Shown piece after piece: positions 4,899 to 64,000 of a stretch of 64,000 bases of DNA. Below the pieces are notes generated by a model. The model was given only the letters and a program-made list of their open reading frames with translations, was not told the origin of the DNA and searched no databases. The DNA is taken from positions 620,001 through 684,000 of the forward strand of contig JAWMAR010000384.1 of assembly GCA_036785375.1 (NCBI GenBank), written 5' to 3'. The DNA comes from Leucoraja ocellata. Lineage: Eukaryota. How positions within the stretch are numbered: the first letter of the stretch is position 1; every line of letters begins with the position of its first letter. The position numbers were made by a program, and so were the translations under genes.

Positions 4899-5455
4899 GT
4901 GAGCGGCTGCAAGGATGGGGTGGGTGAGGAGAGGGAGCGTGCAGTGACTGGAAGGCGTGTGTGAGCTCGGACTGAGGATGGTCAGTGGAGGGAGGGAGGG
5001 AGGGAGTCAGAGGAGCTGCAGGACTTTCCGAGTGAGTCCACCTGTCATGGGGTGAACGGCACCGCGCCTGAGACTGGAGCCTGGGGATGAAATAGTGATG
5101 TGGGGAAGCGACGATGGAAGCTTGGATGTGGACGTTGGGGTCCAAGTTGTCCCAAGAGCCAAGCGGGTTACGAGGAATAGCAATGGGCTGTGGAAGGGTC
5201 TGGAAATCTGACCAGGTTTTCAGCGGCATTAAGATTCAGGGCTGGGGAATGCACGGCTCGTGTAATGATGGACCTGAAGGAATAGTACATGGTGATCCAC
5301 AGGTATTGTCCATGGAGAAGTAAACTGTGGGAAGGGTTTCAAATGAAAGGAAGTGCATTGCTCAACAGTCGTGTGCGCAGGGATCAACCGAAGGAAAGCA
5401 ATTATGACATGTGATTAGAATAAATCCAACAGTTGATGAGTGAATACGAGTGAAT

Positions 5456-5549
5456 GTCTGAAGAAGGGTTTCGGCCCGAAACGTTGCCTATTTCCTTCGT
5501 TCCATAGATGCTGCTGCACCCGCTGAGTTTCTCCAGCTTTTTTGTGTGC
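5456..5549 (+). mobile_element. Penelope-derived short repeat with hammerhead core
   Basis: CTGAAGA-A-GGGTTTCGGCCC-GAAACGTT; flanking direct repeat CAGTTGATGAGTGAAT. Confidence 0.8.
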
Positions 5550-7588
5550 CAGTTGATGAGTGAATGCGGGAAGTTTTTCTGTTGGCACGACGAGTTTATA
5601 ATTTGTGTGAGAGAAGATTTCAAATGCCTATCAAGAGTCACAATGGCCAATCGGCTGTATAACTGCAAAGAAAAGCCTACACGTTTATGTTTAGCGAGGC
5701 ACTTGATCTGCTGTAGTATCAATGGCAGATTTTCGTTGAGAATGATTAGAAAGTGAAGATTTTGCTTTAAATTTTCCTCCTCACTCACTTCAACACTCTT
5801 GACCATGTATTTGCTCATTTTTATAATGTTCTGTTTGGGGTATATAGCACCTTGGAGAGATTTTCCAAGTTAAGAAAACAATTCAATATGTTTTCTATTA
5901 TAAATATTCATTAAATTGTGTATTTTTTATATTCATCCAATAAGGGAGTCACTCGCTATGTTGGATTTATTGGTCATGACCATTTACCCTTGCGATGGTG
6001 ATGATGAGCCATCATTTAGGAATTTCTGTGGTGTTTGGTGAAGATACTTACAAAGATTTGTTAGGGAGTTGCAAGGTTTTCATTGGCATAATGAAGGTGT
6101 GATATATTTTCTTGTTAGACTGTGTGACTTGGGGAAATTCCATGCACCTGCTGACTTCTTGATGGGAGAGGTCACAAATTTGAGAAGTAATGTCAAAGAG
6201 ATCTTCGTGTCTGTGATAAATCTTGTGAATGGTACACACTATGCTTTTGGTGAATGAATCTTCTTCAATGAATCTTTCAGACAGATTTGTGCATTGTCCG
6301 GGATGGTGTGGAACTTTGTTATATGAACGTCAATCATCTAGGCAAAAGGAGAATATATCGCTCGATTCCTGAGTTGTGCTTTGTGAATGGTGGAAAGGGT
6401 TTGTCAAGTTAGGGGGCGAGTCACCGTGTGCAGAATTCACAGCTTCTAATCTGTTCACGATGTTTCTTTGGCTAGTCTAGTTAAAATATTGTGAGGGTTG
6501 AGGCTGCTTGTATAGTGGTAAATAATACTAATGGTATCGTTGTCAACAATGGTAGTCAAGAAGACATGTTACACACCCTATTATTGAAGATCGTTGTCTG
6601 ATGCTTGTGTAGTGCAGATGTTACTTGCCAAGTTTTAGCAACAAGCTTGTAAATTAAGATTGGTGATTTAACGAAAACCAATGATTGGTGTGTGAATTTG
6701 TGAAGCTCTTCTTATTGGTATAACAAATTTATTCAGTCTGTTGTATACATCATTAGAAGGTAAATTATTCAAACAGCCAATTAGGCGAGTGTGAATTTGT
6801 GTTATCTTGTGTTATATATGTCTTGCTGCATATGGCTACAAACCACCTTGTAATCTAAAGAGTTATGAATGAAACTGAATAAATGCACATTCATATGAGA
6901 GACCTTGCATGACAGAGGGAAGGTCTTGAAGCCATAGGAGATACTTGGATCTAGGGCAATTTCCTTTGGTACATTTAGTTCAATACCTTGAGGCTGAGAT
7001 CGATCACCAAATAACCTATTTTCTTTTGTGTTCAACATGATTCTTGCCAGTGGAGAATTTTCTCAGATTCTTATTCAATTTTGTTGTGTATTTTTTTTTT
7101 AAAGAATAGTCATCTTTGTCTTCGGATTGCAACTGTTCTGTCTATATTTTGGGCAAGGCTGAGGTAAGACCTGACAAAAACATATTGTGAGTACTGAGTA
7201 GGGAATTATTGACCAGATGGGCCACCTTCCACCTTTTGATGAGGGGATGACAATTGTTAGGATTTGATTGTCTTGCATTCCAAGGGCAGAATCTCAGCAT
7301 CGTGCTTTTTTTCTGAATACTGGACAGTTCCTTTTTAGGATTAACAGGAGTAGATTGGAAGCGGAGAGAGAAAAGGCAGTGTTAGGCAAACAATGGCAGG
7401 AGTGAATTGGCACAGAAAGGTTTAGAAGTGGCAGAAGTAGCTATGCTAACAGGAATGCCAATGGAGTGAATTAATGCAGACTATTCACAGCTGAACTAAC
7501 AGAAGAGAAATTAGTGGTTCTCTGTTGTTTGTAAATGTCGGGCATTCTTTAAATCAATACTTGCATCAAACAGTTAATGTAACTCCCA

Positions 7589-7682
7589 GGTACACAAAAA
7601 ATGCTGGGGAAACTCAGCGGGTGCAGCAGCATCTATGGAGCGAAGGAAATAGGCAACGTTTCGGGCCGAAACCCTTCTTCAG
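7589..7682 (-). mobile_element. Penelope-derived short repeat with hammerhead core
   Basis: Near-identical reverse complement of the 5456 copy; TSD ACTCCCA. Confidence 0.8.
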
Positions 7683-10119
7683 ACTCCCAACTGTGCAAGA
7701 AGATAAGAGAAATTTAACATTTTGCGCTTGGTGATCAGTCACATCCTGTGACAGTGTAACCAAAACAGACTTGCACATGATAGCTTCGAGAAGATTGCAA
7801 ACAATAACCAAATCTGAGGGCGTGATGGCTGAAGAAGTAAGTGTGAATCTAGTGATCCATGAAGCATTTGAAATTGTTGATGGGATTGGTGCTTTATAAT
7901 CCATTTAAACCATATTATTTATGTCGTTGAGTTTGTTGCTTAATGTTAATTATAGCTTAGCCTCAGAAAAGGATTGAAAAAGTAAGTTCCACTTGGAACA
8001 TGTTGTTTTCTGCAGTAGTTATTTCGCTAGACTATCATTGCTGTGTTGTATTAACAACTTCCTTTTAACATGACATGCTGTAAGATTCTTCATATGTGCA
8101 AGGGGGGAAAAAAAGTATGGACGTCTAGGCAAGAGAGTCAGTTTTAGTTTATTGTTGCGGGTACCGAGGTACAGTGAAAAGCTTTTGTTGCGTGCTAAGA
8201 GAGTCATGAGAAAAGATGTCCAGACAGGAAGGTTGCAGTGTTTTGAGGAGAATGCTGAAGGCATGGCATCTATAGTTGGGGTAAAGGAAGGTACAATGTT
8301 CAAGAAGGGAAAACTCAATACTGGTTAATTGTCACATGGGGTAGGATAAGGTTACAAAATTAAAGGAGGGTCTGGAATTCAAGTCCAGTTTGTTCTTAAA
8401 ATGTAAGGCTGCATTAATTAATATTCATGGTTGCAAACTCTTGTTATTTGACATCTTTGAAATTTTGCACCGTTTTAGCTTCAACCTGAACATGGTCAAA
8501 AACGTGCTGTGGCTGAGATTTGCAATCCCAGAACAAAATATTGGTTAGAATTCTACCATTAGTAACACTAGTGGGACCAATTTGCAAGAATGCAATTAAC
8601 TGCCAACTGAGCCAAACTGATATCTTGTGTTGTTGATCCTTAATCGAGAGCAAAGTATGTGGGTTCAAGTCACACTTGGAGTGGGTTATGAGAGCCCAAC
8701 TTAATTTGTCTTCATGTCATAATGTGTTGGACAGTACTGTGGGGAGACAGTTGGGGATAAAGAAAATCAGCTAAAACCCCAATTCCAGTTTTCAGTAATT
8801 TGTACTGAAAATGTTATTGGGTTACGATCAAAATGAGCTGGGATTTCTTATCTCAGTAACCTTGGTGGAATATCTTTCCAGGTGTGGTGACTCTTTGCAT
8901 GCTTTTTCAGAGATGGATCTACTATCAACTGATACAAGTGTATACCTATTGTACTTGAGTTTGACCTGATTATATTTATGCATAGTACTATTTGATATGA
9001 TAGCACAATAACGCAACAAAAGCGTTTCACAATAGCTCAGTGGACGTGACAATAATAAACCTAGACCAAGTTCACTGTTGAGGCTTGCATTGTGAGGATT
9101 TTTTTACTTGGATGAGGTAATGAAAAAGGACAGCCATACTTGGCACTGTGAGAACTTACACTTTCAGGTGAGCTGTGGGTAAAAGTAGATTTTTTTGAAT
9201 ATTTCCAACCTATATATATGGTTACAGTTTGCTAATTCCCTCTCTGTAGCATCTATAATTAGTTTTGCATTTGTATGAATGAGCTGGAGCATAATAAAGC
9301 AACAAAAGCTTTTCGCGATACCTCGGTACACGTGACTAAACGAAACAGAATCTTTCTTATTTATACTTTGGTGTTTCAACAACCTTGGGCTTAAAACTTG
9401 ACACCAGTATGTATTTGTCTATGAAACTTGAAATAATGTTTTACCCCTTGCTGCAGGTTTAAGGATATTTTAGGTTCCTGTCAGGTTGTTCCTTAATTGT
9501 TGCTGATTGGCATCTGAATGATTGATTTTATTGTAGATTTTCAGGCAATGTCACTGTATTTTAGGTGCATTCGTTTGCATGGACAAACATTGTGTTATTG
9601 GTTAATCATCCTTGCTTGGCAAGTGTGATGGTTTGGTAAGTTGTCTGATTTGTAAGCTCTTAAAGTAGTCCAGTATTAGTATTTCTCTGTATGGAATATT
9701 GTTAGATGTTCATCGGCAACAACGTTTATTGTCCGAATGTTAACAGCTACACTCATTTTAACGAATGACCTATTTATAATCACGGTTGTAAATGGATCAG
9801 TGAATTTTGTATGGACTGTTATGAGTGTTTTATAAAGTTTGATTTAGTATTTTCCATCATGGTTGGGAACTTCAACTGGCTTCACAAGGATTTCATAGTT
9901 TGTATTTGTTACCTTCCTAAATTAATGGCATGTTTTTTTCCCCATTTGATCAGTTGATGTCTTTTTGTACTGGCTACTTTGCTTTAAGTTGTCAGTAAGA
10001 AGGGAAAATATTCTGATTTTAAACGCTCATAAATAATATTTTCATTTGAAAGTATTAATCTGGATTATTACAGAAGGAGCTATGAGTAACGTTTCTTAGT
10101 TCTAACTGACCTATTCCTC

Positions 10120-12952: not shown

Positions 12953-13015
12953 GTAAGCCAATATTTTCAGTGGACATTCATCCTGATGGAACCAAGTTTG
13001 CAACAGGTGGCCAAG
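12953..13015 (+). CDS. HIRA: HIRA exon 2
   Basis: KPIFSVDIHPDGTKFATGGQ; ttccag / gtaaga. Confidence 0.95.
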
Positions 13016-14632: not shown

Positions 14633-15829
14633 CAAGTCAAGTCAAGTCAAGTCAAGTTTATTTGTCACATACACATACGAGATGTGCAGTGAAATGAAAG
14701 TGGCAATGCTCGCGGAACAACAAAACAACCAAACAAATTATAAACACAATCACACATATTATTTTACGTAATAAATAATAGAAGGAAGAACGTTCTGTAC
14801 AGTTAGTCCCTGGTGAGAAAGGCGTTTACAGTCCGAATTGCCTCTGGGAAGAAACTCCTTCTCAACCTCTCCGTTCTCACTGCATGGCAACGGAGGCGTT
14901 TGCCTGACCGCAGCGGCTGGAACAGTCTGTTGCAGGGGTGGAAGAGGTCTCTCATGATTTTGTTTGCTCTGGAGTTGCACCTCTTGTTGTATAGTTCCTG
15001 CAGGGGGGTGAGTGAAGTTCCCATAGTGCGTTCGGCCGAACGCACTACTCTCTGCAGAGCCTTCTTGTCCTTGGCAGAGCAATTCACGAACCAGATTGTA
15101 ATGTTCCCGGACAAGATGCTTTCCACCGCTGCTGCGTAGAAGCACTGGAGGATCCTCAGAGACACTCTGAATTTCCGCAATTGCCTGAGGTGGTAAAGGC
15201 GCTGCCTTGCCTTACTCACCAGTGCTGAGGCGTGTGATGACCATGTCATATCCTCAGAGATGTGGACTCCCAGATATTTAAAACAGTTCACCCTATCCAC
15301 AGGATCCCCATTTATACTCAATGGAGTGTACGTCCTCGGATGATGTGCCCTCCTAAAGTCCATGATCAGCTCCTTCGTTTTTTTGATGTTCAAGAGGAGG
15401 CTGTTCTCCTGGCACCAGAGTGCTAGATCAGCCACCTCCTCCCGGTAGGCCCTCTCATCATTGTCTGAGATCAGGCCCACCACCACAGTGTCATCAGCAA
15501 ACTTAATTATTGAATTGGAGCTGAACCTAGCCACACAGTCATGTGTGTACAGGGAGTACAATAGGGGGCTGAGGACGCAACCCTGGGGCGATCCTGTGCT
15601 CAGGGTGAGGGACTTCGATGTATTCCCTCCCATCTTGACTACCTGGGGCCTGGCGGTGAGAAAGTCCAGGACCCAGGCACACAGGGAGGTGTTGAGCCCC
15701 AATTCCAGTAGCTTCCCGGCCAGTCTGGTGGGGACTATCGTGTTGAAGGCTGAACTGTAGTCTATGAACAGCATCCTCACGTAGCCCCCCTTCTGGCTGT
15801 CCAGATGGGAGAGAGCGGTGTGCAAGACC
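14633..15829 (-). mobile_element. 5'-truncated Rex1/Babar-type non-LTR retrotransposon with uninterrupted RT ORF
   Basis: ORF 14803-15906 with [39 protein letters not shown] and FKYLGVHI; 3' UTR ending GTGACAAATAAA(CTTGA)n. Confidence 0.9.
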
Positions 15830-16010
15830 GGAGGGTCACTTTTATCACAACTGACATGGGATTCAATGTGAAAGTGTCTTGGCCTACATTGTAAAGTCAC
15901 TCTCACAGGGTAAATACCCTGAAAACTTGTCTATACTTTTTTAAAGTTTTGTGTTCAATGTATTCTTGCATACAAACAGTAAATTATAGAGCTCGTCTGT
16001 TTCTTTACAG

Positions 16011-37441: not shown

Positions 37442-37603
37442 TGTGTAGGATGGAACTACAGATGCTGGTTTAAACTGATGATAGACACAAAATGCTGGAG
37501 TAACTCAGTGGCACAGGTAGCATCTCTGGAGAGAAGGAATGGGTGACGTTTGGGTCGAGACCCTTCTTCATACTAGGACTGAAGAAGGGTCTTGACCCGA
37601 AAC
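37442..37603. mobile_element. Penelope-derived repeat with back-to-back inverted hammerhead-like cores
   Basis: ...gacgtttgggtcgagacccttcttca-tactaggac-tgaagaagggtcttgacccgaaac. Confidence 0.75.
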
Positions 37604-39090
37604 TGAATCTCCACCAAGGGAGAAGTCACAGATCCATAATGCTGGCAGTTCCATATAGAATTTTGCTTTGGTTTCTTTGTGATTAATTAGGCCGTATTAT
37701 CATGTTATTATTCAAAACAATATTCACTGCAGGTGATCAGTCCTTACCGCAAAGTGTGCTTTGATATTTAAGATGTGGACTTTATCGGCAAGCTGTGCAG
37801 TTGTTGGCCATGTCTTAGCATAATTGAGAAGGTGGTCACTTCCTGTCATTGAAGTTTTGGATATTCCGTTGGCACCTTTTTATTGGAAATTCCTATAGCT
37901 AGGCCAGCAATGCTAAAGGATTGGCCACATTGTTTCATGCCAGGATGCTGTATTCCATTGGCTGTCCAGAAGCAGATTGGGTTGGAGGCGCCTTTGAAGA
38001 AGCAGCAATGAGATACTATAGTGCACTGATTTGCTATACTCATTATAGCAAAAGAGGGAGTGAATATTTAGCTGGGTAGGGTCCAAATCTAGTAAGTAGC
38101 TGCTTTGACCTGAAGCACCATTCATCCAAGGAATTTACACTTCTGACATGTTCCTTGTGGATGGTAGACATTCAAAGTTAGGAAATGAATCACTTGCCAT
38201 ATGTAATAGTATCATAGGGTTCTGCTCACTGGTGTCTCCCTCTGCCATAATGTTGGTGAAGGATTAGCAATAATAATATCATTTAACGTGGACGGAATGT
38301 GATAAACCTCTTCTGTGTTGCTGCTGAACATTGTCTCCCTCTTGTATATCACCACCCTTACCTGTTCGTGTGTTAGGAAGACCCTTTACCATGTGGATGT
38401 GGTGGTGATGCTGGCTTGGTTGGGGGGGGTGATGGGGGAAAGTGTGGTGGTGGGGAAACTTTTACAGTTTCGAAAGGACATCCTTATAATGCTCCCCCCC
38501 CCCCCCCCTGATAACAGATGCTAGTTGCAATATGTCTCACAGGATTAGCAGAGGCTTGATGGCTCGTCCAATCCTCCCAATTAATGTTAAAATCTGTGTA
38601 GCAGTAAAAAATTGAATTAATGTCATGAAATATTCAATCCCTGCTACCTTGCACATTTCAGTAAGCTTACTGGATTCGGTCCTTGGTGTCCCATGTAATG
38701 TTAGATATTAAGAATCCTCCTGGCTAAGACCTGCCTGCGTCCTCTTCTTTTGCCCTTTCCTTTACGAGGCTTAGTGTACTTGCAGACTTGTGATTGTGTG
38801 CTCTTGCCCACCTTGGTAGAGATTTGTTGTAGTATAGAGTGCATTCTCTGAACAGCTGAAACCAAGGAGTCTCCAGCATTTGCCATCAGTAAATGAAACA
38901 TGCTTCACTGTCACTCTCTGAGCTGTTATAAAAAATTATGTTTTGGATTAATTAACTCAACAAAATTGTTTTCATTTGAATAAATTCAATGCAATATTTA
39001 ATTCCCCAAAATCCATTGTGTAAGAAACTATGAATGCCACAAAATGGCTTCTCACATGACCTGCCTTTTGTTTGTTTCTTTTATCATTAG

Positions 39091-41286: not shown

Positions 41287-41542
41287 CAACGCCTAATATT
41301 GCTCTTCTAAGTAATTCATTGCAATATTTTAGTTATTTTTGCGCAACAAGGTTGTATTTTTCCCCTTCTTTATTTAAATAAAACAGGTACCTCTGTTTAG
41401 TTCCTGAATTTTCAGGGAAGATAATTGTCTAAACTACTTTATGAATCAGCTGGTGGTGTTTTTCTTGGTTATGTTCTCTCCAAGAGCTTCATATTTAGTC
41501 AATAAAAGGTGACCACACCTGAACAGACTGTCCCATGGCTGA

Positions 41543-41732
41543 AGGTAGACACAAAATGCTGGAGTAACTCAACGGGGCAGGCAGCATCTCTGGGAGAAGG
41601 AATGGGTGACATTTTGGGTTGAGACCCTCCTTCAGACCGCTCCAGAGATGCTGCCTGTCCCATTAAGTTACTCCAGCATTTTGTGCCTACCTTCGATTTA
41701 AACCAGCATCTGTAGTTCTTTCCTACACATTT
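41543..41732. mobile_element. Fold-back Penelope-derived insertion
   Basis: Inverted halves; perfect 14-bp TSD TGTCCCATGGCTGA. Confidence 0.8.
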
Positions 41733-55305: not shown

Positions 55306-56931
55306 CAGTGCCCTCCTTGATTTTTGGGACAAAGACCCATCATTTATTTACTTGCCTCTGTATACCACAATTTGAGATTTGTATTTGAAAAAAAACTATA
55401 TGTGGTTAAAGTGCACATTGTCAGATTTTAATGAAGGCTATTTTTATACATTTTGGTTTCACCATGTAGAAATTACAGCAGTGTTTATACATAGTTGTCG
55501 TCCCCCCCCCCCCCCCCCCCCCCCCAATTCAGGGCACCAAAATGTTTGGGACACAGTAATGTCATGTATATAAAAGTAGTCATGTTTAGTATTCTGTTGC
55601 ATATCCTTTGCATGCAATGACTGCTTGAAGTCGGCGATTCATGGACATCACCAGTTGCTGGGTGTCTTCTCTGGTGATGCTCTGCCAGGCCTGTATTGCA
55701 GCCATCTTCAGCTTATGCTTGTTTTAGGGGCTAGCCCCCTTCAGTTTTCTCTTCAGCATATGAAAGGTATGCTCAATTGGGTTCAGATCGGGTGATTGAC
55801 TTGGCCACTCAAGAATTGACCATTTTGTAGCTTTGAAAAACTCCTTTGTTGCTTTAGCAATATGTTTGGGATCATTGTCTTGCTGTTGAATGAACTGCCG
55901 GCCAATGAGTTTTGAGGCATTTGTTTGAACTTGATCAGATAGGATGTGTCGATACACTTCAGAATTCATGATGTTACTACCATCAGCTGGTTGTATCATC
56001 AATGACGATAAGTGAGCCAGTACCTTCAGCAGCCATGCATGCCCAGGCCAAAACACCCCACCACCGTGTTTCACAGATGAGGTGGTATGCTTTGGATCTT
56101 GGGCAGTTCCTTCTCTCCTACATACTTTGCTCTTGCCATCACTCTGTTATGTTAATCTTAGTCTCAGCTGTCCACAAGACCTTTTTTCAGAGCTGTGGCT
56201 GCTCTTTTAAGTACTTGGCAAACTGTAACCTGGCCATCCTATATTTGCGTCTAAACAGTGGTTTGCTTCTTACAGTGTACCTCTGTATTTCTGTTCATGA
56301 AGTCTTCTGCAGATAGTGGTCATTGACAAATCCACACCTGACTCCTGAAGAGTGTTTCTGATCTGTCGGACAGGTGTTTGGGGATTTTTCTTTATTATCG
56401 AGAGAATTCTTCTATCATCAGCTGTGGAGGTCTTCCTTGGCCTGCCAGACCCTTTGCGATTACCAAGCTCACCAGTGCTATCTTTCTTAATGATGTTCCA
56501 AAGGGTTAATTTTGGTAAGCCTAAGGTTTGGCTGATGTCTCTAACAGTTTTATTCTTGTTTCTCAGCCTCATAATGGCTTCTTTGACTTTATTCTTTGCA
56601 ATAAAAGTTTCCAAGGGTGTTGGAAAGACTGGAGGAAAGACTAGGTGCTGTGAGCTCTCTTATACCTGCATTTAATGAGGCAGTTAAACACGCCTGAGCA
56701 ATTACAAACGCCTGTGAAGCCATGTGTCCCAAACATTATGGTGCCCTGAAATGGAGGGACTATGTATAAACACAGCTGTAATTTATACATGGTGAAGCCA
56801 AAATGTATAAAATATGACAATGTGCACTTTAACCACATGTGATTTTTTTCTATTACGAATCTCAAATTGTGGAGTACAAAGGCAAATAAATAAATGATGG
56901 GTCTTTGACCTAAACATTATGGAGGGCACTG
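55306..56931 (-). mobile_element. Tc1/mariner DNA transposon (DD34E, IR/DR type) with frameshifted transposase
   Basis: TA-CAGTGCCCTCC...GGAGGGCACTG-TA ends. TIRs of ~210-250 bp carry inner and outer direct repeats. Peptides GRPRKT, QQDNDPKH and WPSQSPDLNPIE, with 34 residues between D and E. Confidence 0.95.
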
Positions 56932-58744: not shown

Positions 58745-58860
58745 ATTCCTCCCCACCCCCCATCAGTCTGAAGAAGGGTTTTGACCCGAAACGTCGCCTA
58801 TTTCCTTCGCTCCATAGATGCTGCTGCACCCGCTGAGTTTCTCCAGCATTTTTGTGTACA
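58745..58860 (+). mobile_element. Penelope-derived repeat with intact hammerhead core
   Basis: ccccatcagt-CTGAAGA-A-GGGTTTTGACCC-GAAACGTC. Confidence 0.8.
58765..58798 (+). ncRNA. Candidate minimal type I hammerhead ribozyme
   Basis: CUGANGA, extra A, 4-bp helix II, GAAA, palindromic ACGU minimal helix III and GUC site. Helix I is only ~2 bp, so activity is uncertain. Confidence 0.5.
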
Positions 58861-59705: not shown

Positions 59706-60326
59706 TGAGCAGCTTGATGCAATACCATTTCAGATTCAGATTCAGATTTGGTTCTATTGTGACTAGCAAGCTACGTGAATTGTTAAATGGCACCATCTTT
59801 GAAAGGTTTAACCAGGTGGTGGCCACTATCATGAAAGAAAATGAGATTATGGAGGAGATGCAGTGCTGTATTTCCTGGAAAATAGGAGTTTAAGGTTTAC
59901 AAGACTTTGTACTACACATAGCAGAGAGGAGAGGATTAATTATGCATCAACTTGCTTGTGTGGATGTTCATTGCTGGCAAAGAGGCATAACTTGAGGATC
60001 AATGTCAAAATATGACAGAAAATGTACATTAAAAGGTTATTAGAAGATGGAGTTATGACCACGAAGGGCAATTAAGGTCATATCAATCTGAGCATTTTAG
60101 GAATGAGGTAAACAGTGAAGGGATAACATCCCAAGGTTTGTTGGGAAATAGCAGGAAATGAGATTAGTGTGGCAAGCAGTCATTCTTTGGAGATATCTAG
60201 TGTGATGTGCTGAATCAATACTTCATTGCTGTACAGCAATTTCAACAATCATCTGATTAGTATTTAAGGATAAAGCGGATGCCATTAAATGCACAGCGCT
60301 GGCAAGTTATTTGTGGGTAACAGTTC

Positions 60327-60391
60327 CATTATTATTCTGTGAATGAAAGATTGCACTCTGTATGCAATATTTCATTCACAGAATAATAATG
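60327..60391. repeat. 29-bp inverted repeat with 7-nt loop
   Basis: CATTATTATTCTGTGAATGAAAGATTGCA-ctctgta-TGCAATATTTCATTCACAGAATAATAATG, one mismatch. Confidence 0.95.
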
Positions 60392-61989
60392 TAATTGTGA
60401 ATGTAATTGTGAATTGTGAATGCAGCATTGCTGCAGTGATCATGGCCATCATGGTTGTGATGATTCTGACTAGGAACTAAACACTTAATTTCACTCCATT
60501 TGTCTTAGCAACGCTATTCTTTCTTTCTAAATATATATTTGCTTCTCTTTAAATTTTGGTTTGGATTTGGAGATTCCAAGCTGGTCAATGCAATCTGAGA
60601 GTCTCTGAAAGCTTGATGGACAGACTGGTCCTTGTCGATTCATCAGAAAGCTCCTGTCCTTTGGCGTCAATGCAAGCTTCCTTTGTCAGAATGCTTTGCA
60701 CTGCAGCTCTTTATTGTGTAACTCTCTCAAACTTTGTGCATGGTCTCAAAATGCTTCGAATAAGTTTTACTTAAAGTTTTTTTGAAACATTATTTTCTTA
60801 CTTGCATTGCTCACCTCTAATGGCAGCTTTCTTGTTGGTCTGAAGATGAACAAACCTAAAAATATGTAACTAATACCAGTTAACTGATTTGACTAACTGG
60901 GGAGTTGCTTGTACTTTCAAATAGATCTAACTCAGTAGTTGTACATTCATAAATAGTGCTCTGGGGTGTGTTTTTAATCAGATGTAGATATTTTGTGTGC
61001 TCGGGATTTCCCCTTGGTATAAACAATCTATTTTGTGGGCAGCACACTGGTGCTGTTTGTAAAGATAATAAACCGACCATTCAGATATGTTTCTGTGCAT
61101 TGGCCACTCACAGGGGAAGGACCAGCATTCGCTGGGGTTGCACGAATCCCAGGCTACGCAGGTGCACATCCACACCATAGCTTCTCACAAAATTATCCGC
61201 TTTGGAACCCTGTTGACATATCATGCAAATATATTGAACTATGCCTTTTTCTGTTTGATATCTGTTATGATTAAATGATTTGGCAGTTATAAATTATTAA
61301 CATTTGAGAATAGCTCTGGTTGTTTTTTTCCCACTGTGACCAATGTTGTAATTGCAGCTTCCAAATGTAATAGTTATATTTTGTCAAAAGTATAAAGGGA
61401 AGATTTTGTTAAAGCAAACTTGCAGTAAAATCTGGTAACCATTGTGAAATCTTAGTCGGTATAAACCTGAAATGGAGCTAGCCCATATATCTGATCGGTG
61501 AAGGTTAAGGGAACAGATTATTCGTCATATAATTTGGCACTCATTTCCCAGTATCTATAAGTGTGTGTTCTGTCCAAACTGAGTTATTATTTATGTCACT
61601 GGATCACTACCGAGCATCACGAAAACAGAGAGAGCAGATGAATCAGACTCTGTGCTTAATCAGAAATAAAGTCATGGAAATTCCTGTACAGCTCCCAGTC
61701 TCCCTTCCCAGAAAACACCATGTAGTCCAGTATTAACCCCTACAGGATGCAATAAACTTCCCAACACCCTTTCTCTTTGATAAGCTTTCAAGACATTCAT
61801 GTATCCTGACGCTATAACCCATTTGGGGATATATGTATTGGGGCAGAGACACACGCAGCCCAGTAACTTTTACATCCCCCCTTTATCATCACGAAAGAAT
61901 AAGATGACCACGGTTTTCACCGACACCTATCCGGTAATCTCTGTAATCACTAATAGTCTGACACCTGCAAGTGACTTTCCACAAACGTT

Positions 61990-63027: not shown

Positions 63028-64000
63028 AAGAGTCAATGTGGATTGAGTTGAGGAATTGTGACGGCAAGAAGACACTAATTGGCATTATCTACACACCCCC
63101 AAATAGCAGCCCGGATGTACGTTGTAAGTTGCAGCAGGAGTTAAAAGTGGCATGTAACAAAGGTGATGCCACTGTGGTGATGGGGGATTTCAATATGCAG
63201 GTAGACAGGGAAAATCAGGTTGGTTCAGGACCCCAAGAATGAGAGTTTTTAGAGTGCCTCCGTGATGGATTCTTAGAGAAGCTTGTAATGGAGCCGACAG
63301 AGAAAAGGCAATTCTGGATTTAGTGTTGTCCAATGAACCAGATCTCATAAGAGAACTCGATGTAAAGGAACCGCTTGGAGGTAGTGATCATAATATGATT
63401 AGTTTTAATCTGCAATTTGAGAAGGAGAAGGTTAAATTGGATGTGTCAGTGATGCAGTTGAATAAAGGGGTCTATGAAGGCATGAGAGAGGAGCTGGCCA
63501 AGGTAGACTGGAAAGGGAGGTTACACAGAAAAGCTGGAGAAACTCAGCGGGTGCAGCAGCATCTATGGAGCGAAGGAAATAGGCAACGTTTTCGGGCCGA
63601 AACCCTTCTTCAGACTGATCAGGGGTGGGGGTGGGTGGGGGACAAGAAAGGGAAAAGGAGGAGTAGCCGGAAGGCTGGAGGGTGGGAGGAGACAGCAGGG
63701 GAGCTGAGGAAGGGGAGGAGACAGCAAGGACTAACAGAATTGGGAGAAGTCGATGTTCATGCCCCCGGGGTGCAGACTCCCCAAACGGAATATGAGGTGC
63801 TGTTCCTCCAATTTCCGGTGCTGCTCGCTGTGGCCATGGAGGAGACCCAGGACAGAGAGACAAAGACTGGAAAGGGATCCTAGCAGGAATGATGGTGGAA
63901 CAGCAATGGCAGGAAGTTCTGGGCATAATCCGGAAGATGCAGGGTAATTTCATTGCAAAAAGGAAGAAAGATTCTAAGGGGAGTAGGAGACAACCGTGGC
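63028..64000 (+). mobile_element. CR1 LINE ORF2 endonuclease region, interrupted by a Penelope-like insertion
   Basis: WIELRN...IGIIYTPPNS...VMGDFN...EPLGGSDHNMISF...KVDWKG|ILAG. Confidence 0.9.
63519..63863 (-). mobile_element. 5'-truncated Penelope-like element (GIY-YIG C-terminus plus 3' region with hammerhead-like motif)
   Basis: Minus-strand LSVLGLLHGHSEQHRKLEEQHLIFRLGSLHPGGMNIDFSQFC* (63731-63859); 14-bp TSD AGACTGGAAAGGGA. Confidence 0.85.

Follow-up and report, generated by a model that had tools for sequence, protein, structure and literature searches.

Short hammerhead-motif insertions in Leucoraja ocellata as probable run-off products of a Neptune-type Penelope-like element

Minimal type I hammerhead motifs have been described in the pLTRs of metazoan Penelope-like elements (PLEs), including fish Neptune PLEs, along with thousands of dispersed single motifs, which were ascribed to truncated PLEs, and some opposite-strand pairs (Cervera and de la Pena 2014, PMC4209133). 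Minimal motifs of this kind are described as needing a dimer or a protein (PMC4209133; PMC11167929). The closest biochemical system is the anole Poseidon element PAc (Frangieh et al. 2024, PMC11167929), in which two internal reverse transcriptase (RT) start sites bound the tail and the hammerhead lies upstream. Both strands are extended there and cleavage is dispensable for insertion, and the system sets an in vitro precedent for internal initiation with a product length determined by the template 5′ end (PMC11167929). Insertions of EN+ PLEs are described as a pLTR, an inverted 5′-truncated copy and a 30–40-bp tail (10.1101/2021.04.23.441226; PMC3846280). The PLE cycle is still unsolved as to where the RNA begins, why there are two start sites and what the hammerhead does.

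The window analysed here is a stretch of 64,000 nucleotides of L. ocellata DNA (GCA_036785375.1, contig JAWMAR010000384.1, positions 620,001 to 684,000, forward strand). Exons of a WD40 gene lie on its + strand from 4862, where the gene starts, to about 42900; Pfam and PDB searches gave a WD40/HIR1-type hint only (CAF1B/HIR1 in Pfam), and from motifs at 12955, 13622, 16013, 18591, 18990 and 42854 we take the gene to be HIRA. The window also holds a stop-free 375-aa LINE RT frame (14803-15930, − strand), a Tc1-type DDE transposase relic (55724-56659, − strand) and a 70-bp AT-rich palindrome (60320-60398). Copies of the hammerhead-bearing unit are listed below; element coordinates count from the C of CTGAAGA as zero (window 5458), which places the predicted hammerhead cut between +27 and +28.

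5430-5445, + strand: left copy of the 16-bp target site duplication (TSD), CAGTTGATGAGTGAAT
5446-5455, + strand: 10-bp filler at the 5′ junction, in which part of the target is copied again
5456-5549, + strand: short pLTR unit of 94 bp, beginning GT-CTGAAGA, positions −2 to +91, young subfamily, tail absent
5456-5487, + strand: putative minimal type I hammerhead motif, read from the sequence and from base pairing counted over 475 copies; the cut is predicted to fall between 5485 and 5486
5550-5565, + strand: right copy of the 16-bp TSD, CAGTTGATGAGTGAAT
7589-7685, − strand: second short unit, starting at −3, with a 7-bp TSD at 7582-7588 and 7683-7689
37442-37608, both strands: older head-to-head pair, each arm beginning at about −3
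41541-41731, both strands: older head-to-head (inverted) pair
58750-58860, + strand: young copy that also carries a few bases of the C-rich UTR
63518-63860, − strand: longer 5′-truncated copy with the GIY-YIG ORF end, the C-rich 3′ UTR and the pLTR unit; TSD of 13-14 bp
about 260, 3232, 14285, 17924, 19395, 23079, 29108, 32012, 35935 and 36023: older relics, from a profile search
about 36441, 36496, 51192 and 53738: further older relics, from the same search

The first two units lie in the first intron of the WD40 gene, about 550 and 2,700 bp past exon 1. The preliminary description had proposed a unit of about 95 bp that begins at the ribozyme core within a target duplication, which agrees with the 94 bp and 16-bp TSD at 5456-5549, and a near-identical antisense copy with its own duplication, which is the unit at 7589-7685 (96% identity; its 7-bp TSD overlaps the unit start by 3 bases). 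Fifteen of the 16 further copies that it listed are among the profile matches; the one at about 2263 is not. The profile, built from natural copies, gave 22 matches in the window and 0 in the shuffled window.

The copy at 63518-63860 runs into the end of a GIY-YIG ORF and thereby ties the pLTR unit to a parent element. A search with this GIY-YIG peptide leads to head-to-tail tandem monomers of 3,946 bp with a 1,221-aa RT/GIY-YIG ORF, in which Pfam recognizes RVT_1 at residues 705–874 (E=1.6e-6; 28.4 bits, slightly under the 29.6 cut-off) and GIY-YIG at 1125–1159 (E=0.013, under the curated cut-off). The parent thus combines, in one ORF, the RT and C-terminal GIY-YIG of EN+ PLEs, and their tandem or partial-tandem pLTR structure, inversions and optional tail are also seen. 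A CX4CxxC motif at residue 1088 fits the CX2-5CxxC linker between RT and EN, which is described as marking Neptune or Nematis (Craig 2021, 10.1101/2021.04.23.441226). Judged by these sequence features, the parent is probably a Neptune-type autonomous PLE, the linker being common to Nematis. Its location between the stop of the parent ORF and the ATG that follows (+164) identifies the unit as the pLTR of this element, and the link to Penelope drawn in the preliminary description holds in the form of an intact RT/GIY-YIG element in the same genome. The short unit belongs to a known class, as the hammerhead-motif end piece of an autonomous PLE. The very high copy number that had been claimed is borne out by 83,702 exact matches to a 31-mer of the pLTR 3′ core in the 3.44-Gb genome; the ORF start gives 322 matches and the stretch immediately past the tail 377.

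The putative hammerhead comprises a 2-bp helix I, CUGAAGA, an unpaired A, a 4-bp helix II, GAAA and a loopless palindromic helix III. The minimal hammerhead motif of the preliminary description is supported: the CUGANGA and GAAA cores, the UH, the palindromic 15.2–16.2 and helix II are all present. Rfam hammerhead models find no match in the window at E≤5, only 14 unrelated weak ones, so that the call depends on the minimal-core pattern and on base-pair counts. Helix pairs are kept in 79–87% of 475 copies and the core is identical in the majority sequences of four subfamilies; five motif positions vary, either in the loop, at N17 or by G-U/A-U swaps, which keeps the structure, with no two-sided change among them. 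Of 229 young copies 148 have the complete pattern, in sets some of which were selected for an intact front, and of 135 copies from three older subfamilies 17 have it. The expected excess conservation of the core is borderline among the four subfamilies (0 of 11 core against 14 of 61 flank positions vary; p about 0.06), and per copy there is no excess over the flank by a measure that is biased by copy anchoring. Folding gives no thermodynamic support (z-scores −0.7 to +0.5) and the hammerhead is not the minimum-energy fold; together with the 2-bp helix I, this is in line with the reported need for a dimer or protein.

The distribution of 5′ ends was obtained from loci chosen by the 3′ core alone on contig C1 (101 copies, 87 after duplicate removal, with 6 of the 87 moved to the long class on account of similarity further upstream). 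Many copies in the first 2.8 Mb of this contig occur twice with the same flanks (for example L035/L100, L038/L099 and L041/L096), which is a large inverted duplication or an uncollapsed assembly haplotype. The uniform scatter of 5′ ends that would have refuted the preliminary description is not seen: 48 of the 87 fall within the 18 nt from −6 to +11, at the front edge of the hammerhead, with 10 in +12 to +48, 7 in −7 to −300 and 22 further upstream. End density is 0.046 per nt in this cluster, compared with 0.0009 in −7 to −300 and 0.0033 in +12 to +48. The cluster occupies no single base, and it also holds 30 of the 56 copies without an inverted partner. The 3′ ends fall into two classes, at about +90–95 or +128–132, the difference being the tail known for PLEs. 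In 40 of 45 inverted pairs one arm has the tail and the other lacks it, which suggests two subunits or strands using different start sites.

TSDs of at least 7 bp (mode 14) flank 31 of 51 short and 19 of 39 long copies but only 7 of 300 mismatched-flank controls, in keeping with the TSD-flanked retroposition originally proposed. Exact TSDs of at least 8 bp are present in 40 of 58 clean short copies; in 19 of these 40 the TSD abuts or overlaps the unit start, the others having short unrelated inserts, and 18 of the 40 have inserts of at least two bases. A cap-derived G was considered because 100 matches listed at −2 were preceded, by a count made by eye, by 49 G, 38 T and 13 C. It was dropped after 19 of the G's were read as inversion or duplication junction contexts and clean copies gave no signal: the base preceding −2 in 25 of them is T in 15, G in 8 and C in 2, and single-base inserts are T in 3 of 3.

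Cleavage by the ribozyme itself is not what fixes the 5′ boundary. Raw end counts of 420 at +28, 172 at +30, 430 at +32 and 234 at +26 leave no distinct peak, and at most a step, at the predicted cut after sorting of 78, 40, 30 and 30 rows, in this order. Clean ends genome-wide are estimated at about 4,100 at −2, 80 at +26, 400 at +28, 225 at +30 and 320 at +32 (from 27, 27, 64, 36 and 28 unique rows, respectively). The copies are also unlikely to be retrozymes: they start at a point some 30 nt before the cut is predicted and do not have the form of cut-to-cut monomers.

Information on the templates themselves comes from loci at the ORF start, 94 of which were fetched from the 322–377 matches and 80 parsed after removal of 14 from the same array or a segmental duplicate. 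They comprise 54 jump insertions, 20 long-ORF copies and 6 others. In a jump insertion, RT proceeded from +94 or +130 up to a first stop, jumped to a second position and resumed copying. The landing lies within +190 to +299 in 51 of 54, a range whose lower bound is largely imposed by the search pattern. The first stop is inside the cluster in 11 of the 54 and at −7 to −300, often with microhomology, in 37; jump insertions make up less than 0.4% of copies and may not represent the bulk. Across all 54, no later pass goes beyond the first stop and 7 final stops coincide with it, which favours physical template ends over a pause. Where the first stop is inside the cluster, none of 8 later passes that came close (chosen by eye) crossed −6, compared with 15 of 18 on templates known to extend upstream (14 of 17 without one fold-back piece; p=1e-4), although several passes at one locus are dependent observations and an RNA that is copied again may have lost its fold, hiding a structural pause. 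Repeated stops agree with those of their own locus (−3/−3, +2/+2, +4/+4 and +44/+44). On the whole, the re-copied templates are better explained by RNAs with a physical end, or by circles, than by a pause.

At eight jump loci the junction recurs without change, as many as three further times, and several of these junctions have no microhomology. The resulting head-to-tail arrays of 200–350 bp (L146, L152, L156, L191, L134, L175, L267 and L194) have the appearance of rolling copies made on small templates that are circular or joined end to end, and they are similar to retrozymes in the making. At one further locus (L188, G000:C58:5476150-5481150) the order is +4 to +2596, a T run and +4 to +93. 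About 23 T's stand at the junction between ORF position +2596 and +4, and they could be a uridylated RNA end or an untemplated addition. In the direction of synthesis, the piece +4 to +93 came first, then a jump to 2.6 kb inside the ORF and a second stop at +4. We infer for this locus that RT began in the 5′ pLTR of an RNA that carries the ORF and ends at +4.

The long-ORF copies behave differently. None of the 20 starts in the cluster (15 start at −51 to −1296 and 5 pass the fetched edge), against 48 of 77 (p=2e-7), and the long copies thus stem from a different RNA class. Together with the missing cap-derived G, this makes a single promoter at −3 for all products wrong.

We favour, with a probability of roughly 0.62, an origin of the short copies as run-off products of PLE RT from internally initiated RNA. 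The RT would be primed at a genomic nick, initiate internally on the RNA at +94 or +130, within the 5′ pLTR, and run off an RNA whose physical 5′ end lies at roughly −3 to +8, the short copy being inserted with a TSD at the nick. A start in the 5′ pLTR is suggested by the analogous behaviour of the anole element in vitro and by the order of the pieces at L188. For the RNA 5′ end, our expectation is split about equally between a transcription start and a boundary of 5′-to-3′ decay at a protein-bound ribozyme. In the case of transcription, short templates would be transcripts from −3, with long copies derived from multimers or circles; TCAGTCT at −5 to +1, which we take to be initiator-like, is preceded by a C-rich tract with stretches that we likewise read as resembling GC/CACCC boxes. 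Penelope of D. virilis is described as having a promoter inside the pLTR that includes an initiator (PMC2377424). In the case of decay, short templates would be trimmed RNAs, which would fit the T run and the A's added at junctions. A tentative extension, to which we give rather poor odds, is that a linear transcript from a typical locus offers the 5′ pLTR alone as a complete start site and so yields tiny run-offs, with whole elements and perfect tandems arising from circles of one monomer whose ends are joined at the hammerhead cut. If so, the ribozyme would gain its missing job, the absence of long copies beginning at the cluster would be explained, and the rolling arrays would be snapshots of retrozyme birth.

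Much the same evidence bears on the alternatives. Telomerase halts at a boundary element, and PLE RT might by analogy copy a long RNA and halt at the folded or protein-bound hammerhead edge or at the C-rich tract. In young subfamilies as in old ones the boundary does match the edge of the ribozyme, a cap signature is lacking, and 3 of the 18 later passes on long templates halted at +7 to +10. However, the other 15 crossed the boundary, no long-ORF copy halts there on meeting the upstream pLTR, repeat stops track the position of each locus and the hammerhead is not the favoured fold, so that we consider such a pause improbable, if conceivable. Chance 5′ truncation may describe the copies that extend beyond −7, which appear randomly truncated, but an approximately 50-fold excess of ends in the 18-nt window leaves it next to no credit as the general cause.

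A boundary set by RNA processing, either self-cleavage or splicing into the polypyrimidine-CAG acceptor before −1, draws on this acceptor-like sequence and on an intron of the D. virilis element described as ending at helix I (PMC4209133), as well as on the jump in clean ends from +26 to +28. Junctions at L097, L193 and L239 place one or two added A's against exactly +28, as cleavage would allow. It is nevertheless very unlikely, as the main cluster lies 30 nt upstream of the cut, the ends at +28 are comparable to those at +30 (225) and +32 (319) and amount to one-tenth of those at −2, and the clean copies have no upstream exon in common, with the TSD meeting the start or only short unrelated inserts intervening; an origin at a splice acceptor was rejected on this last ground. 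Somewhat less improbable, but still doubtful, is the separate short retroelement family of the preliminary description, in which solo units would be transcribed independently and copied by PLE RT in the manner of SINEs. Short units have their own TSDs and are more numerous than long ones (56 and 36 young copies; 38 against 3 and 28 against 1 in older subfamilies, where long copies are harder to detect). In the young set, however, the two do not differ at 7 variable sites (p 0.18–1.0), the commonest haplotype is found in 18 short and 18 long copies of this small sample, and TSD lengths and tail fractions (14 of 51 short, 12 of 46 long) are alike. Without a diagnostic site and with common haplotypes, the short copies form no lineage separate from their autonomous partner. 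Solo units, moreover, end by +130, and by analogy they may lack what the anole enzyme is described as needing in vitro, sequence beyond this point (PMC11167929). The run-off origin remains our preferred reading.

Presumed RNA reads show no site where many molecules begin or end. In four 2026 raw-read runs most reads (70–94%) continue into unrelated flanks; these runs probably derive from a relative (element reads mostly 90–95% alike) and are uninformative on the start site, the loose ends at −3/−2 being genomic copies of that species and not RNA ends.

The element class and the dispersal of minimal PLE hammerheads are already known, and the single insertion is ordinary. Like the motifs in the account of PMC4209133, the present one has a loopless palindromic helix III, an unpaired base before helix II and G10.1-C11.1; unlike them, it has a 4-bp helix II and a 2-bp helix I. 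The main account there reports no fixed 5′ boundary, and the present subfamily exceeds 80,000 copies. Relative to anole PAc as described in PMC11167929, the parent is of Neptune type and its ATG lies 164 nt past the core instead of inside it; in 40 of 45 inverted pairs the two arms start at different sites, in contrast to the lack of a strand difference in vitro. The text of PMC11167929 makes no mention of solo run-off insertions, and its supplementary figures may show the same 5′ edge. Partial tandems, head-to-head inversions, a tail at one end, TSDs and solo pLTRs are common to the EN+ PLEs described by Craig et al. (2021) and Arkhipova et al. (2013). The solo pLTRs of those elements are described as partly without TSDs and as arising by recombination or deletion (10.1101/2021.04.23.441226; PMC3846280), whereas the solo units here are the majority product and mostly have exact TSDs. 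Non-LTR retrozymes, as presented in PMC7229834 and 10.64898/2026.07.22.740005, are likewise hammerhead-bearing and related to PLE pLTRs, and the rare head-to-tail arrays resemble them. The window units, in contrast, stand alone instead of in tandem, and the cut does not bound them; short arrays occur in only 8 of the 80 ORF-start loci, with junctions that are unique to each locus and off the cut site. A limited literature search found no published counterpart to a genomic test of RNA end against pause by means of re-copied insertions. The copies are of value as a natural archive of PLE transposition on a very large scale. To what is known they add the evidence for run-off from re-copied templates and the different behaviour of the long copies, by which the PLE cycle can be put to the test.
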